DNA from: Candidatus Pacearchaeota archaeon
GTDB lineage: Archaea > Nanobdellota > Nanobdellia > Pacearchaeales > JAPDKA01
Assembly: GCA_038840695.1 (NCBI GenBank)
Contig: JAWBVE010000002.1
Span: 28,170-92,169 of the forward strand
Length of the DNA: 64,000 nucleotides
Direction of reading: 5' to 3'
Below, in pieces: positions 19,478 through 33,166 of this stretch. The position numbers and the translations under genes are program-made. Below the pieces are notes generated by a model, which saw only the letters and a program-made list of their open reading frames with translations, ran no database searches and had not been told where the DNA came from. Each line of letters begins with the position of its first letter. Position 1 is the first letter of the stretch.

Positions 19478-20653
19478 ATGGGCTTGAATATGGAAAAAGG
19501 ACTGGAAAAAGAGCTTGATAGAAGTGAACTTGAAAAAATACTTGAAAGCTATAGAAGGCTAGGAAGTATAAATAAAACTGTAAAGGAAGTTAGACACAGT
19601 TATCATACCCTTCAGAAATATTTTAAAGATGAGCTTGAAAAAATAAGAAAAGAAAGGCAGGAGGAAAAAGAGCAAAAAATTATTAATGCTTATAAAGAGC
19701 TTGGACAGATTAAGAAAGTAGCTAAATTGCTTAAAGTAGATAGGAAAACTGTAAGGAAAGTATTAAGAAAGCATGGAATTAAGATAAAGCGTTGGAGTGG
19801 TGCGCGTTCTCTAAGTAAGGAGGAGGTTGAAAAGATAATAAAAACCTATGCTGAATTAGGGAATACTAAAAAAACTGCTAAGGCCTTAGGCCATGCTCAA
19901 ATTACTGTAGCCAAATACTGTAGAGAGCACTTTGAGTTAAACAAGATAAATAAAGTGAGAAGAAAATATGATTGGGAAAAAATAAGGGAGCTATATTATA
20001 AATATGACAGGCCTAAGGATGCTGCAAGAGAAATTGGTTGCTCACCAAAAACTGTAAGAGAAGTTTGGCACAAGTTTGGGCTACATGTACAGAGAAAAAA
20101 GCCAAAAATTAATGAAACTGAAATTTATAATATAAAGAAAAGATATTTTAATGGAGAAGGCATAGTAAATATATCGCGTGATCTAAAAAGAAGGACAGAT
20201 GTAATTATGAAGTACCTTAATTGGACTCCTTTGAGTGAAGGTTTGATCTTTTGTTTTTATGATAATGGAGATAAAGTAAAGAAAAGCATAGAAACAGTCA
20301 CAAACATAATAGAAAAATATGCTGAATGCACAGAAAAAATTTATTCGGATAGGCCTGAGTATGAAAAATATTACAAGATTGCTAACGAGATTTTTCCAGG
20401 AAAATTTAAGGAAATACTAATCATTTCATTCAAAAAAAGAAGCGATGAGGGCTTGGAGGAAAGGATTGAGAGCTATATAAAATTCAGACAATTGTGCTCA
20501 GAAGTAATCAATTTTTTTGCACGAAACAACATACAACTTGAGCTTTTTACACAGGAAATTTCTAAAGCAACTTACTATACTCTCTTTCCTGAAGCATCTA
20601 AAACCTTTTATGAATTTGATCAAAAAGGTGAAGGTGTTGAGCAGAGCATTTAA
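19478..20653 (+). CDS. Tandem multi-HTH DNA-binding protein
   Basis: About five repeats of I...Y..LG.....A..L.....TV; unassigned C-terminal domain. Confidence 0.7.
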   Translation: MGLNMEKGLEKELDRSELEKILESYRRLGSINKTVKEVRHSYHTLQKYFKDELEKIRKERQEEKEQKIINAYKELGQIKKVAKLLKVDRKTVRKVLRKHGIKIKRWSGARSLSKEEVEKIIKTYAELGNTKKTAKALGHAQITVAKYCREHFELNKINKVRRKYDWEKIRELYYKYDRPKDAAREIGCSPKTVREVWHKFGLHVQRKKPKINETEIYNIKKRYFNGEGIVNISRDLKRRTDVIMKYLNWTPLSEGLIFCFYDNGDKVKKSIETVTNIIEKYAECTEKIYSDRPEYEKYYKIANEIFPGKFKEILIISFKKRSDEGLEERIESYIKFRQLCSEVINFFARNNIQLELFTQEISKATYYTLFPEASKTFYEFDQKGEGVEQSI

Positions 20654-20725
20654 ATTGCATTAAAAAGCATAAAAAATCATAAAAATTTTTAGTAAAATTT
20701 ATAAACAGAGATAATTTTTTATGTT

Positions 20726-21352
20726 ATGTTTTTTAATTTTTTCAAAAAAAGAAAACTTGAAAGCGAGATTGAAAAATTAAAGGAAGTAATGAAGAATTCT
20801 TTTTCAAATGTAAAGGATGATTTAAATAAAATTTCCAGTTGGATTTTTTATTTGAATGAAAAAGATAAAGATCTCGACGAGAAAATTAGCAAATTACAGG
20901 AAGAAATTGAAGAAATAAAAGAGCTGCTAGCCTTTTCGTCAGGGGCGTTTAAACAGGTGTTTAAACAGGTGTTTAAACACCAAACAGCTGTTGAAGGTGT
21001 TCAAACAGCTGTTCAAACAGGTGTTCAAACACCAAAAATTAATAAAAAATTAACAAAGTTAGCAACAAAAAATATAATTTTGGAAGGCTTAACATTAATG
21101 GAAAGAGCAATTTTGTGGGTATTGGCAAACACTGACTTAAAGCTAAGTTGTGAAGATATCGCAAGAGTGCTTGGAAAAAGTGAAAACACAATAAGAGGAC
21201 AACTAAATAGCCTTAAGTCAAAGTGGCCACAGCTAATAAATGAAATAATTGAAAAAAATGGAAAAAAGAGATATTATATTGATGAAAGAACAAAAGAGCT
21301 TATTTTTAAAATAACAAAGACAAAAATTAAAGCTAAAATAAAATTACGTTAA
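20726..21352 (+). CDS. Coiled-coil / repeat linker / C-terminal winged-helix protein
   Basis: N-terminal SF..VK.D coiled coil; C-terminal LT..ER.IL...LS..DIA..LGKS..TIRGQLN.L wHTH. Confidence 0.75.
   Translation: MFFNFFKKRKLESEIEKLKEVMKNSFSNVKDDLNKISSWIFYLNEKDKDLDEKISKLQEEIEEIKELLAFSSGAFKQVFKQVFKHQTAVEGVQTAVQTGVQTPKINKKLTKLATKNIILEGLTLMERAILWVLANTDLKLSCEDIARVLGKSENTIRGQLNSLKSKWPQLINEIIEKNGKKRYYIDERTKELIFKITKTKIKAKIKLR
20947..21034 (+). repeat. Two blocks of three 12-bp tandem repeats (consensus GTTYAAACAGST) with palindromic core
   Basis: Copies start at 20947, 20959, 20971 and 20999, 21011, 21023. Confidence 0.9.
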
Positions 21353-21705
21353 GCTAAGAGCCAAGAAGTCAAAAAAGTTAAAAAGCTAAGAACAAAAAAG
21401 TAAATTAAAGCGAATTTTTTAATGCAAAAAACAAAAAAGTGAGAGTTAAGTTTTAGAAGCTAAAAATAAAGAGCTAGAGAGCTAAATTAAAAAATAAATT
21501 TAAAACGAACTTTTTTGAATAAAAAATTAAAGCTACAAAGAGTAAGGCTGAGAGCAATGTCTACAAACTATGTAATTAAACGAACTTTTTGAGAGAAAAA
21601 AGCAAAAAGTGAGAATTAAGCAATTTGAAATGCTGAAAGAATTTTGAAGTATAAAGCAAGTTAAAATTTATTCGGTTAAAGGAAAAAATAGATACTAAGC
21701 ATTCT

Positions 21706-21807
21706 TTAGGCATTCTTTAAGCATCCATATTCTTCCATGTCCGCTTCTATTTTCTTATATCTTCTCTCTAGCTCTTGCTCAATTTTTTCATAGTCTGGCT
21801 TGCTCAT
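21706..21807 (-). CDS. Possible 33-aa peptide downstream of the wHTH gene
   Basis: Manual translation MSKPDYEKIEQELERRYKKIEADMEEYGCLKNA; starts 21 nt after the stop of 21829..22722. Confidence 0.35.
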   Translation of the reverse strand: MSKPDYEKIEQELERRYKKIEADMEEYGCLKNA

Positions 21808-21828
21808 TTTAGAGGCTGATTTATGAAT

Positions 21829-22722
21829 TTAGTCGAGCTGCTCAAGGGCTTCGAGGCTTGATATCTTTAATATTTCTCTCGGAATTGAAAGAAAAACTTC
21901 CTTGCTATGATAGCATTCTTTCTGAATTGGAATGCCTTTAAGAATTAGCCTATTTACAAGGTCTCTAACAGAACTTGGAGCAAGGCCTGTTTTCTCTGCA
22001 AGGGTTTTGTAGCTTATCTTTAAGCCTGCCTGCTGCATAGAATAGATAAGCACAAATATCTCAAATTCTTTCTTTGTTAAAGATTTAAAACGCCTTGCAA
22101 GGATTTTTTTATAATTATTAACCATATGCTCGATTTTTTCGAGCTCAGCTTTGTTTTCTTGCTCTTGTTGCTGAAGAGGGCCAAGGCTTTGTAAATGCTC
22201 TTGTTGTTCTTGTGACTGTTGCCCTCGCTGTTGTTGCTGCTGTGGCTGCTGTAGTTGTTGTGGTTGCAGCTGTTTCAATTGCTGTGACTCTTGCATTTCT
22301 TTAAAGGTTTTGGCTTGAATTTCAGAGTTTTGTTGGTTTTGTTGTATAGTGGAGATTGGCGAAAGGTTCGTTTTAATTTGACGTAGGATTGACGTAGATC
22401 TGTTGGAAATGTGTTGGAAATGTGTTGGAACCCCTTCATTTCCTTTGGAACGGCTGAAATAAGGCTTATTTCCTTCAATTTTTTCTTTATTTTGCATAGG
22501 AAATAAAGGTGTGTTGGAAATGTGTTGGAAATGTGTTGGAAATGTGTTGGAATTTTCCAACACATGTTTATACGAACTTTTCAGCATATTCTTAGCAATT
22601 TCTAGTTCCTTCTTTATAGTTTCTAAATCCCTTCGCATCATAAGAAGTTCATTAAAAATAAAATTAATATCTTGCTTCACAGCCGCAAAAGCTTTCTTTA
22701 TTTTTTCTTCTTCCTTTTCCAT
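21829..22722 (-). CDS. Coiled-coil / repeat and poly-Q linker / C-terminal winged-helix protein (candidate origin-associated factor)
   Basis: N-terminal AF..VKQD coiled coil; C-terminal LT.KE..IF..IY...SYK.LA.K..L..SSVRD.V..L..KG wHTH. Confidence 0.75.
   Translation of the reverse strand: MEKEEEKIKKAFAAVKQDINFIFNELLMMRRDLETIKKELEIAKNMLKSSYKHVLENSNTFPTHFQHISNTPLFPMQNKEKIEGNKPYFSRSKGNEGVPTHFQHISNRSTSILRQIKTNLSPISTIQQNQQNSEIQAKTFKEMQESQQLKQLQPQQLQQPQQQQQRGQQSQEQQEHLQSLGPLQQQEQENKAELEKIEHMVNNYKKILARRFKSLTKKEFEIFVLIYSMQQAGLKISYKTLAEKTGLAPSSVRDLVNRLILKGIPIQKECYHSKEVFLSIPREILKISSLEALEQLD
22378..22565. repeat. 11-bp iteron-like repeats (TGTTGGAAATG x3 and x4 plus one inverted copy; TTGACGTAG x2) flanking an inverted ORB-like pair
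   Basis: Copies at 22401, 22412, 22423; 22512, 22523, 22534, 22545; inverted TTCCAACACAT at 22555-22565. Confidence 0.9.
22430..22512. promoter_or_regulatory. Inverted ORB-like pair around a T-rich spacer (intragenic origin candidate)
   Basis: Minus strand 22430-22451 reads GTTCCAAAGGAAATGAAGGGGT; plus strand 22492-22512 reads TTGCATAGGAAATAAAGGTGT. Confidence 0.65.
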
Positions 22723-22787
22723 CTATTCTTTAGATTGCTTGATTTTATAAAGCTTGCTCTGAGGCTTGGCTTAACCAAAAGAAAAAG

Positions 22788-23006
22788 TAAGGGCCACTGG
22801 ACTCGGTAAAAGAGTGCCTCAAACAAATTGACCCAACTTAGCCTGTCAATTTGTTTTGAGGTTATCTCTTTTGCGCCATACTTAAGCTTAATAGGTGCAG
22901 GCTTCGTATGGTGAGTCGCAGTCCAGTCACCATACTGCTGGTGGTCACCTATCAGAGGCTGTATGGTCGCGCTCTTTTCCAGAGCACCCGATATGCCTGG
23001 CCCTTA
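22788..23006 (-). ncRNA. Unassigned structured non-coding RNA, ~220 nt
   Basis: GC-richer island; ends pair (TAAGGGCCA/TGGCCCTTA); several nested long helices; TTTAAA box about 25 nt upstream and T-run downstream on the minus strand. Confidence 0.7.
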
Positions 23007-23100
23007 TTTCTTTTAACAAAAAAGAATTTAAATCCTTTTGCAATCACTACAAAAAGACAGACTTAAAGCACCTAAAACCATGCAAAAAAAGACTAGCTAG

Positions 23101-23367
23101 CTATGCTAAACTACTTGCACTTAGCTTTTTGTATGCAAAATAGGCTTTTTCTGAGAGAGTCCATTTAATCTTTCTAGTAAAATTGCTACTTCTCTTAACA
23201 ATGGCAGCCTTTTCAAGCTCAAGAAGCAAGGCCTTGATGAATTCTTCATCTCTTGCAAGCTCTCTGGCTATTTCTGCTGTAAAAAGGGAGTGTGGAAATT
23301 TTTCAAAAAGTAAAGAAATGATTGCCTCTTTAATTTTAGTTATTTTTTCTTGGCTTATTTTAGGCAT
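23101..23367 (-). CDS. Small winged-helix DNA-binding protein
   Basis: LFTAEIARELARDEEFIKALLLELEK..IV...RKIKWTL. Confidence 0.75.
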   Translation of the reverse strand: MPKISQEKITKIKEAIISLLFEKFPHSLFTAEIARELARDEEFIKALLLELEKAAIVKRSSNFTRKIKWTLSEKAYFAYKKLSASSLA

Positions 23368-23424
23368 GAAAAATTGATATTGATCTTTTTAAAATTTTTA
23401 TTCACTTTTTCAGTTTTTTATTTT

Positions 23425-24399
23425 TCATTTTTTCTCAATAGCCATTGTGACGAGAGGGCTTCCAGGGAAAGCGATAGAGGTATCGGCAAGAGCAATGATA
23501 TAGCCTGAACACTTACTATAAAGAACTTCTTCAACATCACCCAATACATTTGTTATTTCAACGAGTGGTGTACCTTCTTTGACAAAATCGCCGGGCTTCA
23601 CAAGAAATTTTACAATTCCACTCTTATTACTACTCAGCTCTTCTAGTAGCTCTAGTCTATGCTCTGTCCTTATCTTTGTCTCAGAGCACCATTCTTCCTC
23701 AATTTCTAACATGTCAAAAGCAGCAAGCATGTTTTTAATCCCTTTAACTCCTATTCTAACAAAACTTTCATGAATTACGGTAGGACCCCCAAGCTCAACT
23801 GAAAAAGCCGGAATCTTGGCTCGATTAACAAGAGCCGCTGTTAAGCTTTTATCAAGTAAGTATTTTGTATAGCCAGGCACTTCTATGTCATAAACAACTG
23901 TTACACCAAATCTTTCAGCAAGCCTCCAGCTTTTTTCAACTATTCGCCTTGCCTTTAAGCCAATGCCCAAAGCGCGATCAATTATAATATAAGGGATCGA
24001 ATTGAGTGTATCAGAATGTAAATCGATAACAAGACTTGGTTTTGTTTCAGTGATTGTCTTAAAAATCATCGCAGCTATACGCTCTGTTGTACTACCATTA
24101 AGGTCTCCAGGAAAAGCTCTATTCAAGTCATTTTCGTCATAAGGATTTTCACGCCATTTCATTTCAAAGCCAAGAGGATTAGTAATTGGGAGTGCATAAA
24201 CAGTTCCTCTCTTTAGCTTTTTGGTTTTAAATGAATTAAAAAGTCTATGAATTACTTCTATGCCAGTTACTTCATTGCCATGAATGGCTGAGGTGATCCA
24301 AATAACTGGGCCTGGCTTGCGTGCTTGTTCATATAGTAAAGGCAATCTCCGCATCGATGAATCGGCTCCTCTAAAAAGCCTAATAAATGCCTTTTTCAT
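23425..24399 (-). CDS. Succinylglutamate desuccinylase/aspartoacylase family (M14) deacylase
   Basis: HGNE, DLNRAFPG, IDLHS and VELGG motifs; C-terminal barrel-sandwich domain. Confidence 0.9.
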   Translation of the reverse strand: MKKAFIRLFRGADSSMRRLPLLYEQARKPGPVIWITSAIHGNEVTGIEVIHRLFNSFKTKKLKRGTVYALPITNPLGFEMKWRENPYDENDLNRAFPGDLNGSTTERIAAMIFKTITETKPSLVIDLHSDTLNSIPYIIIDRALGIGLKARRIVEKSWRLAERFGVTVVYDIEVPGYTKYLLDKSLTAALVNRAKIPAFSVELGGPTVIHESFVRIGVKGIKNMLAAFDMLEIEEEWCSETKIRTEHRLELLEELSSNKSGIVKFLVKPGDFVKEGTPLVEITNVLGDVEEVLYSKCSGYIIALADTSIAFPGSPLVTMAIEKK

Positions 24400-24509: not shown

Positions 24510-27188
24510 ATGCCAAACGAAAACATAAAGCTGATAGAAAAGCCGAGTAGTAAGGAAGAATTACTTAGCATATTACATCCTCTAGTTAAAGAGTGGTTTT
24601 TTTCCAGATTCAAAGAATTTAGTTTGCCTCAACTTTATGGGGTGTTGCCAATATGGAAAAGACAAAATATACTCATAAGTGCTCCGACTGGAGGCACGAA
24701 AACACTAACTGCCTTTCTTGCCATAATAAATTATCTTGTTGGCCTTGCAGAAAAACATGAGTTGGAAGATAAAATCTATGCACTCTATGTTAGTCCTCTT
24801 AGAGCCTTAAACAATGACATTCTTGTCAATCTTAAAATACCCCTCACCGAAATAGCACAGCTTGCAAGAAAAAAAGGAATTAAGCTGCAAGAAATAAGAA
24901 TTGGTTTGAGAACAAGTGATACGAGCATAGATGAAAAAGCGAAACAGCTAAAGAGGCCACCGCATATTTTAATAACAACTCCAGAGAGTCTTGCAATAAT
25001 CTTAAGTAGCAAAAGATTTATTGAAAGACTAAAAGCTGTTGAATTTGTTGTTGTAGATGAAATACATGCATTAGCAAACAAGCGAGGGGCCCATCTAAGC
25101 TTGAGCCTTGAACGGCTTAGTAATATTTCAGCAATAGAGCCTGTAAGGATTGGCCTAAGTGCAACAATAGCTCCTCTCGAGGAAGTTGCAAAGTTTTTAG
25201 TTGGCTATCACTGGAATCCTGCCAGCAATAGCTTTGAACAAAGGCCTTGCTTAATAGCTGATGCAAGATTTGCTAAGCCGATTGAAGTTAGTGTTTTAAT
25301 GCCGACAGGCTTTTTTGAAAATGCTGAAATACAAAGTACAAAGCTATATAGCTTAATGAATGAGCTCATTCAGAAGCATAGCACAACGCTTATTTTTACA
25401 AATACAAGAAGTGGAACAGAAAGGGTTATAGAGCATTTAAAAGAACGCTTTCCAAGACAATATGAAGCAATTGATGGAAGTGGTAGTAGCATTGGTGCAC
25501 ACCACTCAAGCCTTAGCAGAAGGCTTCGCTTTGAAATAGAAAAAAGGTTAAGAGAGGGAAAGTTAAAGGCGATTGTGAGCAGCACTAGCCTTGAGCTTGG
25601 CATCGACATAGGCTTTATTGATCTAGTGCTTTTGCTTGGAAGTCCGAAAAGTATTGCAAGAGCAAGTCAAAGAATCGGAAGAAGTGGTCATAAGCTTCAT
25701 GAAAAAGCTCGTGGCATTTTCTTAGTTCTTGATAGAGACGATTTGATTGAATGCAGCATAATGGCTAAAAAAATTATTGAAGGAGAAATTGATAAAGTGC
25801 AAATTCCAAAAAATTGCCTTGATGTGCTATGCCAGCATGTTTATGGAGAAGCTATAAATAAAGTATGGCACGTCGATGATTTTTATAGGCTTGTGAGGCA
25901 AAGTTATTGCTTTAATGGCCTAAGCAAAGAACAGCTTCTAAATGTGATTTCATATCTTAGCGGGCAATATTTTGGTTTAGAGCAGAAAGGAATTTATGCT
26001 AAAATATGGTATGATGAAAACACAAGACAATTTGGCAGGCGTTCAAAGCTTGCAAGAATGCTTTATATGACTAATCTTGGTGTTATTCCTGAAGAAAGCT
26101 ATGTGAATGTTATCATAGCAGTGCCAAGAGAAAGAAAGGATGAAAAAATAGGGGTTATTGATGAGGCTTTCCTAGAAAGACTTAAGCCGGGCGATGTTTT
26201 TGTGCTTGGTGGAGAAAAATATATGTTCATGCATGCAAGGGGCATGAATGCCTATGTTAATGCTTCAGTAAAACAGCCTCCAACTATTCCTAGCTGGTTT
26301 AGTGAAATGCTACCTTTAAGCTTTGATTTGGCAAGAGCCATAGCACAATTTAGAGCTTTAATGGAACAAAAGCTAAGACAACTAAACAAAAAAGAAACAA
26401 AGGCATCAATAATAGAATGGATAAAAGCTTATTGTCATTGCAATGAAAATGTAGCTAGAGAAATTTATGATTATTTTTATGAGCAGTTTTGCTATGCTGA
26501 AATACCTCACTCAAGAAAACTTTTGATAGAGCTTTATAAAGCTGTAGATGGCAAAAAATATTGGATTTTTCATAGCTTATATGGCCGACGTGTTAACGAT
26601 GCATTAAGCCGAGCTCTCGCTTTTTTAACAGCAAAGCTAAGCCATCGCGATATTGAGATAGGAATAAATGATAACGGCTTTTATCTAGCTAGCTATGATC
26701 AAATCCAGGTTGAAAGAGCTCTCGAGGCTTTAATAAAAAATTGGCAAAAGCTTGAGATGATTTTAAATGAAGCTATAGAAAAAACTGAAGTCTTTAAAAG
26801 AAGATTTAGGCATAATGCTGTTAGAAGCTTTTTAATTTTAAAAAGCTATATGGGAAAAACAAAGAGTGCTGGAAAACTACAACTTCAATCTGACATGCTT
26901 TACAGCTCTGTAAAAGCCATAAGCCCAAATTTTCCTGTAATAGCTGAAACTCGACGTGAGGTTCTTGAGGATGTTATGGATATAGCGAATGCAAAGCTTG
27001 TTCTTGAACAAATAGCAAGCAAAAAAATTGAAATAAAAAAGATAACAACAGACCTCCCAAGCCCCTTTGCCCTTAACTTAGTTGCGCAGGGCTATCTTGA
27101 TTTGTTAAAGATAGAGGACAGAATTGAATTTTTGAGAAGAATGCATGAAAAAATCTTGGAAAGAATAGAAAAGAAAAAGGGCAATTAA
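24510..27188 (+). CDS. lhr: Lhr-family ATP-dependent helicase
   Basis: APTGGTKT (variant Walker A), ITTPESL, DEIH, LSAT, SLELGIDIG, QRIGRSGH and PSPFA motifs. Confidence 0.93.
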   Translation: MPNENIKLIEKPSSKEELLSILHPLVKEWFFSRFKEFSLPQLYGVLPIWKRQNILISAPTGGTKTLTAFLAIINYLVGLAEKHELEDKIYALYVSPLRALNNDILVNLKIPLTEIAQLARKKGIKLQEIRIGLRTSDTSIDEKAKQLKRPPHILITTPESLAIILSSKRFIERLKAVEFVVVDEIHALANKRGAHLSLSLERLSNISAIEPVRIGLSATIAPLEEVAKFLVGYHWNPASNSFEQRPCLIADARFAKPIEVSVLMPTGFFENAEIQSTKLYSLMNELIQKHSTTLIFTNTRSGTERVIEHLKERFPRQYEAIDGSGSSIGAHHSSLSRRLRFEIEKRLREGKLKAIVSSTSLELGIDIGFIDLVLLLGSPKSIARASQRIGRSGHKLHEKARGIFLVLDRDDLIECSIMAKKIIEGEIDKVQIPKNCLDVLCQHVYGEAINKVWHVDDFYRLVRQSYCFNGLSKEQLLNVISYLSGQYFGLEQKGIYAKIWYDENTRQFGRRSKLARMLYMTNLGVIPEESYVNVIIAVPRERKDEKIGVIDEAFLERLKPGDVFVLGGEKYMFMHARGMNAYVNASVKQPPTIPSWFSEMLPLSFDLARAIAQFRALMEQKLRQLNKKETKASIIEWIKAYCHCNENVAREIYDYFYEQFCYAEIPHSRKLLIELYKAVDGKKYWIFHSLYGRRVNDALSRALAFLTAKLSHRDIEIGINDNGFYLASYDQIQVERALEALIKNWQKLEMILNEAIEKTEVFKRRFRHNAVRSFLILKSYMGKTKSAGKLQLQSDMLYSSVKAISPNFPVIAETRREVLEDVMDIANAKLVLEQIASKKIEIKKITTDLPSPFALNLVAQGYLDLLKIEDRIEFLRRMHEKILERIEKKKGN

Positions 27189-30687: not shown

Positions 30688-31065
30688 TTACTTCAGTTTT
30701 GGCATAGGTAAATGATAAGGCAGCCCAAGTTGATCTTCAATAAGAAGAGCCTTCAAATTGCATTTAGTCAAGATAAAATTAAAAATTAATTTTGAAAGCT
30801 CTTTCTCTTTTTTCCATCCTTTTAAAATTTCTTCTGCTCTCTTCTTCTCTTCAGCATAATTAAGATAACCAGCAAGAATTATCTTCGCATTTTTTTCATA
30901 ATCTAATTCGAATTCAAAAGGAAAAACTAAAACCTTTTTATTCTCAATTTTTAACTCAGATTCTTCCGGATCTTTTAAATTAAGTCGTGCTGAAACTTTC
31001 ACATTCCCTATTCTTTGTTCTCGCTCTGCAGAAATTTTTGTAAAAAATATATTCAATATAGGCAT
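30688..31065 (-). CDS. Hypothetical protein
   Basis: 125-aa beta-rich ORF (FTKISAER...FEFELDY...LP..LPMP). Confidence 0.65.
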   Translation of the reverse strand: MPILNIFFTKISAEREQRIGNVKVSARLNLKDPEESELKIENKKVLVFPFEFELDYEKNAKIILAGYLNYAEEKKRAEEILKGWKKEKELSKLIFNFILTKCNLKALLIEDQLGLPYHLPMPKLK

Positions 31066-31251: not shown

Positions 31252-31509
31252 CTATATCAAATCCTGTTCATCTACGACAACGAAATCGCTTATTGCCATA
31301 ACAGAACTCCATGAAATGAGAAGTTCTTTATTTTTTGTCTGTTCAAGATTTAAATTTAAAGCATATGAAGTAGGGTTTGTAATAACCATCTGTACAATTT
31401 CTCCTGTTCTAGTCTCAAAAATTAAATCTTTAATTGTTCCTAGCTTTTTACCTTCTTTTGTCACAACTAACTTGTTTAGAATTTCGTCTGGCTTAACTTT
31501 TCCTGCCAT
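31252..31509 (-). CDS. PRC-barrel domain protein (CdpB-like)
   Basis: K.VVT.EG..LG.IKDL.F...TG.I and I.W..V.AI.DFVVV patterns. Confidence 0.85.
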   Translation of the reverse strand: MAGKVKPDEILNKLVVTKEGKKLGTIKDLIFETRTGEIVQMVITNPTSYALNLNLEQTKNKELLISWSSVMAISDFVVVDEQDLI

Positions 31510-31610: not shown

Positions 31611-31910
31611 CATCCCCTTTATTTCTTTTGGAGAAAAATTTAAAAATGGGTTAAATTTTTCTGTAGGCTTGATAGAAAAAATTTAAAAATTTTATTGTTT
31701 TATAATATATATTTCAACGATGTACATAATTAAACATTATTTTTTATAATACTATTTTTTTATCCACACTTTTACTATTTATAACATTATGTTGCAGCTA
31801 TTCAAAAGAAAAATAAGGGTTTTTTTAATTTCTTATGGAAAAAAGATCTCAGCTTTATGAATAAAAAATTTCGACGTAACTTTAAAGGAGTTTCCACAGG
31901 AAATATAGCA
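31611..31910. promoter_or_regulatory. Candidate replication origin upstream of cdc6
   Basis: ORB-like TCCAAAAGAAATAAAGGGG (minus, 31614-31632), TTCAAAAGAAAAATAAGGGT (31801-31820) and TTCCACAGGAAATATAG (31892-31908) around a very AT-rich stretch. Confidence 0.7.
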
Positions 31911-31969
31911 GGCAGATACTAATATTAAATTTCAATAATCTTTAAAAAGCCTAGAATTTGTATGGCATT

Positions 31970-33166
31970 ATGAATTTTAAACTTGACAAGATATTTGACA
32001 ATGTAATAAAAAAAAGCATTTTCCAAAACAAGTCAGTTTTACTTTCAGATCATACACCTACTACAATTTTGCATAGAGAGCAACAAATAAAACAGGTAGC
32101 AAAAATACTTTCATGTGCGCTTAGATTAGAGAAGCCAAGCAATCTTTTTATTTATGGCAAAACAGGAACCGGCAAAACACTAGTCATAAAATATATCATT
32201 AACGAATTATTAAAAAAAACTAAAGAGCTTAATTTGGCTTTAAATATAATTTATACGAATTGCAAATTAAAAAAAGTTTCAGATACTGAGTATAGAATAA
32301 TAGCAGAACTTATAAATTTGCTTGGTAGCAAAGTTCCAGCGACAGGCTTGCCTACAGACCAAGTTTATAAAAAATTTATTGAGCTAGTAGATGAAAAGCA
32401 GCAACTTTTGATTATAGTACTAGATGAGATAGATGAAGCTGTAAAGAAGATTGGTGATGCTTTCCTATATAATTTAACAAGGCTTAATTCAGAGCTCATA
32501 AATTCCCAAATAAGCCTTGTTGGGATAAGCAATGATTTAACTTTTCTTGATTCGCTTGATCCTCGTGTTAAATCAAGTTTAAGTGAGGAGGAACTAGTTT
32601 TTCCACCATACAATGCATTACAACTTCAAGATATATTGAGAGAAAGGGCAAAAAGAGCTTTCAAGAGAGGAGCAATAAGTAAAGGAGTTATTGAAAAAAT
32701 AGCAGCGCTGGCAGCAAAAGAGCATGGTGACGCAAGAAGAGCTATCGATTTACTTAGAGTAGCTGGAGAGCTTGCTGAGCGAGAAGGAAAGCTAAAATTA
32801 ACTCTTGACCTTATTGATAAGGCTATCGAGAAGATAGAGAGAGATAAAATTATTGATTTAGTAGAGACACAACCAAGGCATCATCAGCTAATACTTTTTG
32901 CTATAATCGAGATGGCAGAAAAAAAGGAAAAGGAAAAAATTTACACAGGAGATATTTATAATAAGTACGTCGAGCTTTGTCAAGAGCAAAGGCTTGAGCC
33001 CCTAACTCAAAGAAGAGTAAGTGATATAGTGGCTGAACTTGATATGTTAGGCATAATCAATGCCCAAGTTATAAGCAAAGGCAGATATGGCAGAACGCGA
33101 GAAATAAAAATAAACTTACCTCAAAGCCTAATTCTTAAAATTAAATCAATAATAAACCAGGCATAA
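31970..33166 (+). CDS. cdc6: Orc1/Cdc6 replication initiator
   Basis: GKTGTGKT, LDEID, LDPRVKS, FPPYN, GDARRAIDLLR motifs and C-terminal wHTH with GRYGRT. Confidence 0.96.
   Translation: MNFKLDKIFDNVIKKSIFQNKSVLLSDHTPTTILHREQQIKQVAKILSCALRLEKPSNLFIYGKTGTGKTLVIKYIINELLKKTKELNLALNIIYTNCKLKKVSDTEYRIIAELINLLGSKVPATGLPTDQVYKKFIELVDEKQQLLIIVLDEIDEAVKKIGDAFLYNLTRLNSELINSQISLVGISNDLTFLDSLDPRVKSSLSEEELVFPPYNALQLQDILRERAKRAFKRGAISKGVIEKIAALAAKEHGDARRAIDLLRVAGELAEREGKLKLTLDLIDKAIEKIERDKIIDLVETQPRHHQLILFAIIEMAEKKEKEKIYTGDIYNKYVELCQEQRLEPLTQRRVSDIVAELDMLGIINAQVISKGRYGRTREIKINLPQSLILKIKSIINQA

Follow-up and report, generated by a model that had tools for sequence, protein, structure and literature searches.

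Candidate origin recognition box and palindrome arrays in the linker-coding DNA of two paralogous winged-helix genes near a predicted archaeal replication origin

Introduction

In the canonical archaeal replication origin (oriC), inverted origin recognition boxes (ORBs), the sites of the initiator Orc1/Cdc6, are arranged around an AT-rich element that adjoins the orc1/cdc6 gene (PMC4010727). Initiator boxes have also been described elsewhere. In Thermococcales, Cdc6/Orc1 binds a cluster of ORBs and mini-ORBs inside dp1, the gene of the small subunit of PolD, both in vivo and in vitro (Matsunaga et al. 2007, PMC1904270), and in Haloarcula hispanica the ORB-rich element oriC2D, downstream of cdc6E, is a negative regulator of oriC2 that likely acts by titrating Cdc6E and that has been likened to datA of E. 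coli (Wu et al. 2014, PMC3936714). Here we analyse a stretch of 64,000 nt from contig JAWBVE010000002.1 of Candidatus Pacearchaeota archaeon (the window, to which all coordinates refer unless another locus is named; its assembly comprises 644.5 kb in 10 contigs and is 84.8% complete), in which two convergent genes, called A and B, carry a predicted ORB and arrays of short repeats in the DNA that codes for their central linkers.

Like the dp1 cluster, the box in B stands in a protein-coding gene close to oriC and cdc6, an arrangement conserved throughout an order. In contrast to dp1, the host gene encodes a winged-helix DNA-binding protein with a paralogous partner, and the box falls in a disordered linker, where it is read as a conserved peptide and is followed by a microsatellite or by an array of 11-mers. 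B also usually has one or two predicted boxes in place of a cluster. With oriC2D the locus shares initiator boxes that lie outside the unwinding region yet near the initiator gene, together with a proposed regulatory role; oriC2D, however, is intergenic and has 11 boxes, whereas B has one or two in coding DNA. With the canonical origin the box in B shares both its sequence (dyad and G-string) and its cdc6 neighbourhood, but it lies inside a gene and at a distance that ranges from 1.5 kb in most relatives to 9 kb in this genome. A further precedent is the O gene of phage lambda, whose linker-coding DNA contains the iterons of ori-lambda; these are bound by the protein that the gene encodes, at a site that is itself the origin. 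Genes A and B likewise have repeats in the linker-coding DNA of a DNA-binding protein, but the clearest site here is predicted to serve another protein, Orc1/Cdc6, and the actual origin appears to be located elsewhere.

The replication origins of these uncultivated, very small archaea have had no experimental study to date. Among the papers listed by our literature search, none joined the term 'origin recognition box' with the names of these lineages, and a search on ORBs within coding genes listed none that matched the bulk of the query terms.

Results and Discussion

A predicted origin recognition box within gene B

The two genes, the spacer between them and the boxes in B are the following.

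20726..21352, + strand: gene A, an open reading frame (ORF) of 208 aa with a long N-terminal helix, a disordered centre and a C-terminal winged helix
21829..22722, - strand: gene B, an ORF of 297 aa, predicted paralog of A with the same architecture and in addition a glutamine-rich insert
21353..21828, no strand: A-rich spacer between the two stop codons, 476 bp, with repeated AAACGAACTTTTT(T)GA and AAAAAGTGAGAGTTAAG pieces and oligo-T tracts on either strand
22431..22449, - strand: ORB in the coding strand of B, TCCAAAGGAAATGAAGGGG, with T before and TT after it, translated S-K-G-N-E-G-V
22493..22511, + strand: second, weaker ORB-like box, TGCATAGGAAATAAAGGTG, 2 mismatches, back to back with the first

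On the minus strand, positions 22431-22449 read (T)TCCAAAGGAAA, in the extended context TTCCAAAGGAAATGAAGGGGTTCCAACACATTTCCAACACAT..., and the core of this segment, TTCCA..GGAAATGAAGGGGT, agrees with the published archaeal ORB. The 'Archaea consensus ORB' is given as CTTCCAGTGGAAACGAAAGGGGT, and the ORBs listed in the same place include GTTCCAGTGGAAATGA-AGGGGT from Methanomassiliicoccales and TTTCCACTGGAAACAG-AGGGGT (PMC4153887, Table 2), while the ORBs of Pyrococcus have invariant 'TTCC' and 'GAA' cores (PMC1904270). Over the B genes of the 53 genomes whose loci we read, our own genome included, the consensus is TTTCCAcaGGAAATgaAGGGGTTcCAACAgACAgACAg. The dyad core expected of an ORB, TTCCA-NN-GGAAA, is invariant in these genes at 2.0 bits per position, and the G-string, which in an ORB follows three to four bases past the dyad, is found as GGGGT in ...GGAAATGAAGGGGTT at 1.9-2.0 bits per position. 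The match to the ORB consensus spans 20 nt in all. The core of B is, as its sequence predicts, a canonical origin recognition box with both dyad and G-string, and the peptide S-T/K-G-N-E-G-V is the translation of that box.

The box is also rare outside this locus. Genome scans were made with the degenerate pattern TCCANNGGAAANNNNGGGG, and in the 644.5 kb of our own genome this pattern has one match at 0 mismatch, which falls within B. A 535-kb relative assembled as a single contig has three hits at up to 1 mismatch, all at this locus and no more than 1.6 kb apart: one in B and two that flank an AT-rich stretch upstream of cdc6. On the coding strand of B the pattern is matched without mismatch in 47 of the 53 genomes, with 1 mismatch in five and with 2 in the last, and the other perfect boxes in the 243 kb scanned number three, all of them just upstream of A. 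Two genomes of other orders also have a perfect box in B (translated STGNEGV and STGNGGV), so the feature is old. The second ORB-like box has 1 mismatch in a genome of the same genus (L055). The most conserved site in B would be a box for the initiator Orc1/Cdc6, and not evidently one for B itself.

The three perfect ORBs immediately upstream of A (L035:3012-3030, L040:1419-1437 and L052:5032-5050) are followed by CTTCGACA or CTCCGACA, a flank of the type found in B.

Codon usage in the linker-coding DNA

The centre of both proteins, which the original prediction had described as a low-complexity linker, turned out in our alignments to be the best-conserved part of both families even though AlphaFold2 predicts it to be disordered. 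The conserved central peptides are QT.V.GVQT.VQT.VQT in A and, in B, S.GN.GVPT together with PTHFQHISNT or TDRQTDRQ. What is conserved extends to the codons. Among 31 B genes, residues of the centre are each encoded by a single codon almost throughout (TCC in 31/31, GGA in 30/30, GGG in 30/31, GTT in 31/31, CCA in 26/27, ACA in 30/30 and GAC in 26/26), whereas each invariant winged-helix residue of these genes is encoded by 3-6 different codons; the GTT, CAA and ACA codons in the centre of A are similarly near-invariant in 29 genes. At conserved residues, the mean pairwise codon difference in B is 0.092 in the centre and 0.522 elsewhere (permutation P<1e-5), and in A it is 0.092 against 0.385 (permutation P=2e-5). 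Relatedness of the genomes cannot yield such a contrast, because both classes of site share the same genes and the same tree.

These motifs could in principle be conserved for the sake of the protein, with VQTx, TDRQ, PTHFQHISNT and STGNEGV serving as functional linker motifs, for instance as sites of interaction or modification, and the DNA repeats being merely their historical origin. The reading frame is indeed always kept, the peptide motifs are invariant in the alignments, and dipeptides of the QT type recur in the A and B families. We nevertheless regard this explanation as unlikely, because synonymous sites are frozen in the centre of the genes only. The repeat units are moreover 11 bp or 4 bp long, so that the peptide amounts to one DNA word translated in three frames, and such units are retained across homologs of 45-60% protein identity. 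The variable x of VQTx in A is alanine, glycine, proline or arginine, which correspond to the GC, GG, CC and CG centres of the palindrome AAACA-SS-TGTT; x covers every palindrome centre, a pattern that a DNA site would explain and a peptide would not. Within one gene all copies carry the same unit variant (GTC or GAC in place of GTT), from which it follows that the arrays evolve in concert. The same palindrome and the ORB are also present in non-coding DNA upstream of A, and the match to the ORB consensus, running over 20 nt, is likewise at odds with a purely protein-level cause. The narrow claim, that the core of B is an ORB and that the centres of both genes are constrained as DNA, is one that we make with high confidence on these sequence comparisons. 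On this view the conserved peptides (STGNEGVPT, VQTxVQT, PTHFQHISNT) would arise for the most part because binding sites are read in frame through a linker that tolerates them.

Repeat arrays in the two genes

Each gene carries two blocks of repeats in its central part.

22510..22564, - strand: B array 1, TTCCAACACAT x3.9 (22510-22552) and one inverted copy (22554-22564)
22401..22430, - strand: B array 2, TTCCAACACAT x2.7, directly 3' of the G-string of the ORB; three-frame reading PTHFQHISN
20947..20979, + strand: A array 1, GTTTAAACAGGT x2.8, 100% match, translated VFKQVFKQVFK
20981..21031, + strand: A array 2, CAAACAGCTGTT GAAGGT GTTCAAACAG[C/G]T units, translated QTAVEGVQTAVQTGVQT

That the arrays differ between the genes, being 12-bp and palindromic in A and 11-bp and direct in B, had been proposed beforehand and was reproduced with Tandem Repeats Finder; in the homologs, repeats are present at the corresponding places. 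For B the program reports the 11-mer TGTGTTGGAAA with 3.9 copies at 22510-22552 and 2.7 copies at 22401-22430, each at 100%. With up to 1 mismatch the 11-mer has 10 matches in the window, eight of them within B, against 1.46 expected, and none of 100 dinucleotide-preserving shuffles reaches 10. Across the 644.5-kb assembly the tandem 11-mer occurs in gene B only. In most of the order the G-string of B is followed by TTCCAACA and then by about 7-10 copies of ACAG, (ACAG)n; in the loci scanned, (ACAG)3 occurs 117 times, always within B. Here, and in the family to which this genome belongs, (ACAG)n gives way to tandem 11-bp copies of the 3' flank of the ORB, TTCCAACACAT. Long GT stretches have been noted after some Haloferax ORBs (PMC1868953), and they correspond to the AC-rich tract of B seen on the other strand.

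The arrays of A are runs of the palindrome AAACASSTGTT with a period of 12 bp, in which the half-sites AAACA and TGTTT alternate every 6 bp, and they are not ORBs. The last unit of A array 1, GTGTTTAAACAC, is a perfect 12-bp palindrome, and in A array 2 Tandem Repeats Finder reports TGTTCAAACAGC x2.8 at 20998-21031 with a 95% match. The motif has seven matches in the window, all within A, where 0.47 are expected, a number that 0 of 100 dinucleotide-preserving shuffles attain; in the whole assembly AAACASSTGTT occurs seven times in A and once elsewhere. Taken together, the motifs of the two genes have no more than one or two single copies outside A and B in the assembly. By our own comparison, the A unit GGTGTTCAAACA and the G-string-plus-flank of B, GGGGTTCCAACA, are alike at 10 of 12 positions, which is expected of paralogs. 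The palindrome, often in the form TTTAAACAGCTGTTTAAAC, is also found in non-coding DNA up to about 340 bp upstream of A in 28 of the 49 genomes for which sufficient upstream sequence is available. Of the 40 palindrome hits outside the genes, 39 are in this upstream DNA. Since it stands both in the promoter region and in the gene body of a dimeric winged-helix protein, the palindrome looks like an operator; A or B is the proposed binder, for which the upstream copies are the one indirect hint.

Short tandem units in coding DNA raise the alternative of phase variation, in which hypermutable microsatellites would turn A and B on and off by slipped-strand frameshifting and be retained because variability itself is selected. 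Neither (ACAG)n, with n about 7-10, nor the 11-bp unit has a length that is a multiple of three, both lie within coding sequence, copy numbers vary among genomes, and the unit variants shared within a gene are a sign of ongoing slippage or conversion. The B genes themselves argue otherwise: all 53 are in frame without a stop, no out-of-frame allele being found among them, and among the 150 B-profile matches listed there are no internal stops. It is further the sequence of the unit, beyond its repetitiveness, that is kept across an order; B is near-universal (279/301 genomes) and mostly single-copy; and the adjacent ORB, which is not repeated, is equally frozen. We therefore consider phase variation very unlikely. 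Among the unitig-like contigs of 4 sequencing runs no array indel is listed, but since the pieces end at the arrays (at 20939-20986, 22400-22427 and 22512-22552) they cannot show copy-number variation.

Position of the pair relative to the predicted origin

At higher coordinates of the window than the pair lie the initiator gene and a predicted origin of the canonical type.

31970..33163, + strand: orc1/cdc6 initiator gene (TIGR02928, E 3.9e-127)
31614..31911, no strand: predicted oriC, inverted ORB-like boxes around an AT-rich stretch, GC 0.21
31614-31632, - strand: left ORB-like box of oriC, 1 mismatch
31893-31911, + strand: right ORB-like box of oriC, 2 mismatches
30691..31065, - strand: gene X, 125 aa, between B and the origin in most relatives

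No second copy of orc1/cdc6 was found in the assembly, where PF09079 has a single match. Directly upstream of cdc6, 20 of 21 loci have inverted ORB-like boxes that are 130-490 bp apart with their dyads facing an AT-rich stretch, and the usual order is A, B (convergent with A), X, oriC, cdc6. B and cdc6 share a contig in 62 of the 75 genomes listed for both, the other 13 being fragmented assemblies; where they share one they are divergent in every case (62/62) and 2.4-15.9 kb apart, 33 of the pairs at a distance of at most 3.7 kb. The box in B is near cdc6 but does not itself flank the AT-rich element: in most relatives it lies about 1.5 kb from the nearer origin box and has the same orientation as that box.

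With the origin in view, a second alternative can be weighed, namely that the A/B locus is itself the origin, with the spacer as the place of unwinding, the inverted arrays as iterons and A and B as initiators or co-initiators. Much about the locus invites this idea. The repeats lie in the linker-coding part of DNA-binding proteins, the arrays face each other across an AT-rich spacer (GC 0.23-0.27, AT skew up to +0.44), the ORB in B agrees with the published consensus as a real one would, the motifs are unique to the locus in the genome, and cdc6 is nearby. The idea is nevertheless decidedly unlikely, given a complete canonical origin directly upstream of cdc6 in 20 of the 21 loci. The G-string of the ORB in B faces the spacer, opposite to the boxes of the cdc6 origin, and this ORB is about 600 bp away from the spacer; the spacer ranges from 36 to 609 bp among relatives, and within the genus just short pieces bearing oligo-T are kept; and neither A nor B has an ATPase or helicase-loading domain. 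On the grounds of ORB orientation, variable length (36-609 bp) and conservation confined to oligo-T pieces we rejected the spacer as an unwinding element. It looks instead like a pair of putative back-to-back oligo-T terminators, acting in both directions.

A third alternative is that the arrays form a centromere-like site, bound by A and B as the centromere-binding proteins of a segregation system near the origin. It is in keeping with arrays that are unique in the genome and close to the origin and with proteins that are small, dimeric, coiled-coil DNA binders. Against it, no gene for a partition ATPase was found beside the pair in 21 extended loci, checked by ORF sizes, A/B profiles and the families of our own window, and the conserved core of B is, by its match to the published consensus, an initiator box; we judge this explanation highly improbable. 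The pair had originally been predicted to form a module for chromosome replication or segregation. The replication part of that proposal is borne out by the ORB in B and the nearness of the pair to orc1/cdc6, and the segregation part found no support, with no partition ATPase beside the pair in the loci read.

A proposed accessory satellite of the origin

The reading that we favour, and hold to be probable on comparative grounds, is that origin-associated binding sites have been overprinted on the linkers of two regulators, so that the A/B locus would be an accessory satellite of the origin. A and B would be an ancient paralogous pair of DNA-binding proteins, each with a dimerising helix, a disordered linker and a winged helix, whose genes are part of the surroundings of the origin and orc1/cdc6, and the role of the satellite is probably regulatory. 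This reading draws on the precedents of initiator boxes outside the unwinding region, namely the ORB cluster of dp1 and oriC2D. The box inside B would be an outlier of oriC at which Orc1/Cdc6 docks, and by docking there the initiator might tune initiation or its own availability, or block the transcription of B. The palindrome arrays (AAACAGCTGTTT) would be bound by a dimer of a winged-helix protein, the simplest candidates being A and B, and the pair would in this way be autoregulated.

Several observations weigh against this reading or limit it. The reading frame is kept in all 53 B genes, so that some selection on the peptide may also act. In this genome and its family the box in B, although perfect, lies 9-12 kb from the predicted origin, and at such a distance it can hardly serve as a flanking box of the unwinding region. 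B usually has one or two ORBs and no cluster, and compared with the 11 boxes of oriC2D this makes a titration role of the oriC2D kind a stretch. Our own genome is without a strict palindrome upstream of A. In the 535-kb relative the cumulative G-C curve has its minimum at 49 kb and its maximum at 337 kb, with the locus at 300 kb, and the gene-strand bias does not mark the locus as an origin either; because the skew here follows the gene strand, as the composition profile at the scale of the window also does, we consider it uninformative rather than contrary. Finally, the compared genomes are mutually related, so that counts across genomes overstate independence, and the codon contrast within genes is the control for this.

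A more far-reaching version is rather unlikely in our estimation but deserves to be set out. A and B may be lineage-specific accessory initiation factors whose genes form a feedback device, with the linker-coding DNA as the docking site (in B the Orc1/Cdc6 box and the AC-rich tract, in A the palindrome array). When the initiator, A and B occupy these sites, they would physically gate the transcription of both regulators, and transcription through the docking sites would clear them. If this were true, the replication cycle would be coupled to the supply of its regulators within about 2 kb of convergent DNA, and a replicator element and a protein linker would be co-encoded and would co-evolve across a whole archaeal class.

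Returning to the accessory satellite, the findings tie the probable place of the origin, for an entire order, to a set of genes that can be recognised (A, B, X, oriC, cdc6), and they make candidate origin-associated factors of A and B, two uncharacterised and near-universal DNA-binding proteins. They also provide a predicted natural case of dual coding: the DNA of a protein linker doubles as a binding site, which keeps the linker from changing, and this is something that annotation and methods based on evolutionary rates would misread as a conserved peptide motif.

Architecture, paralogy and distribution of A and B

Most of what had originally been predicted for the two proteins and their layout held up. 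The ORFs place A and B convergently across the A-rich spacer, as claimed, and both the ORFs and AlphaFold2 confirm a long N-terminal helix (the proposed coiled coil) with (S/A)F..VK.D and a C-terminal winged helix-turn-helix (HTH) with LT..E..I in each: the N-termini read SFSNVKDD in A and AFAAVKQD in B, and the winged helices start with LTLMERAI and LTKKEFEI, respectively. Based on family alignments, AlphaFold2 predicts a single long N-terminal helix (residues 2-83 of A and 2-58 of B), a centre with pLDDT <50 (residues 71-114 of A and 60-174 of B) and a C-terminal winged helix of the order helix-helix-helix-strand-strand with pLDDT >=90 in both. In Foldseek the winged helix resembles folds of the MarR/ArsR/Lrs14 type with a probability of 1.00 and best E-values of 6e-5 (A) and 1.5e-3 (B). 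Regulators of these families have the C-terminal fold in common with A and B, but they are without the long N-terminal helix and the DNA-constrained linker. The glutamine-rich insert of B (QQLQQPQQQQQRGQQSQEQQ...; 22160-22300, - strand) consists of imperfect CAG/CAA repeats and is shorter or absent in the aligned homologs.

Searches for A and B in Pfam, NCBIfam, PDB sequences and the ESM Atlas gave nothing beyond generic HTH or coiled-coil matches. In Pfam the best HTH family for A is HTH_11 at 18.6 bits, below its curated cut-off of 25, and B matches HTH_24 at 21.9 bits, exactly at the cut-off of 21.9; the ESM Atlas clusters that contain A or B hold unnamed or generic 'HTH type 11' proteins of Nanobdellota. 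Prediction of a complex between A(1-85) and B(1-62) gave a score of 0.02, which is uninformative either way on heterodimers.

The proposal that A and B are distant paralogs is sustained by comparison of their family profiles, which hhalign aligns with 98% probability (E 1.4e-13) over 134 columns that span the SF..VK.D helix, the centre (VEGVQT against NEGVPT) and the winged helix. Profiles are required for this, pairwise BLASTP of A against B not being significant (E 0.17), and the B profile retrieves gene A in its own genome at E 2.5e-4. Judged by these profiles, A and B are paralogs within one protein superfamily, and a profile search finds a single copy of each in our genome.

A database search returned 929 homologs of A at E<=1e-3, from Pacearchaeota wherever the organism is named, while a word-based search returned just 14 for B. 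Of 301 genomes sampled from the order, 279 have a match to the B profile, mostly in single copy; among those of high quality the figure is 78 of 82. In a sample of the phylum the B profile matches 168 of 251 genomes, often by the winged helix alone, a tally that takes in two genomes flagged as unpublished (G536 and G537), none of whose sequence was read. Co-occurrence and synteny in relatives, which had been named as a check on the prediction, are extensive: A and B are adjacent and convergent in 49 of the 53 genomes and in tandem in one, which belongs to another order. A was not found in the other three, of which one locus is at a contig end, one has no A within its flanks and one has a weak A-like gene. 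The locus was also found in 8 sequencing runs from 2 studies of hot-spring metagenomes, none of them RNA, which says nothing on expression.

Neighbouring genes and minor observations

The family of gene X, whose members have 125-142 aa, keeps its place between B and oriC across the order; the gene at 30691-31065 (- strand) and the one at L037:3746-4171 (- strand) encode proteins of 38% identity (E 2e-22). Neither Pfam nor NCBIfam has a family that matches gene X; it is a third uncharacterised gene near the origin. A PRC-barrel protein of 84 aa is encoded at 31258-31509 (- strand; PF05239, E 3.8e-10), right next to the predicted origin and between gene X and the left box of oriC.

Directly upstream of A, at 19478-20653 (+ strand), lies a gene for a 391-aa protein of repeated helix-turn-helix units, whose best NCBIfam match is Cbp1 (CRISPR repeat-binding; E 1.2e-14, 54 bits against a cut-off of 140) and which does not consistently accompany A in the other loci that we read.

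An Rfam search of 20600-23450 at E<=1 returned only rows at the level of chance, for which reason a known RNA embedded at A and B is unsupported. The GC-rich (0.42) intergenic segment 22790-23006 upstream of B has a very stable fold on the + strand (MFE -92.7 kcal/mol, z -6.7), closed by GGGCCA... / ...TGGCCC, and 0 of 200 shuffles are equally stable. Neither an Rfam match at E<=1 nor a tRNA was found in it, it is missing from the syntenic gap of G013, a genome of the same genus, and it is possibly an unclassified structured RNA or a mobile insert.

In many fragmented assemblies a contig ends about 1.3-1.7 kb from B and about 1.0-1.5 kb from the C-domain of Cdc6. This suggests that assemblies tend to break in the intergenic region of the origin, and the arrangement described above accounts for breaks about 1-1.5 kb from B or cdc6.

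In the family of this genome, the roughly 9-12 kb between B and X hold an Lhr-type helicase and other housekeeping genes; in the window the large Lhr-type helicase is encoded at 24510-27188 (+ strand) and has DEAD, Helicase_C, WH_Lhr and DEAD_assoc domains.

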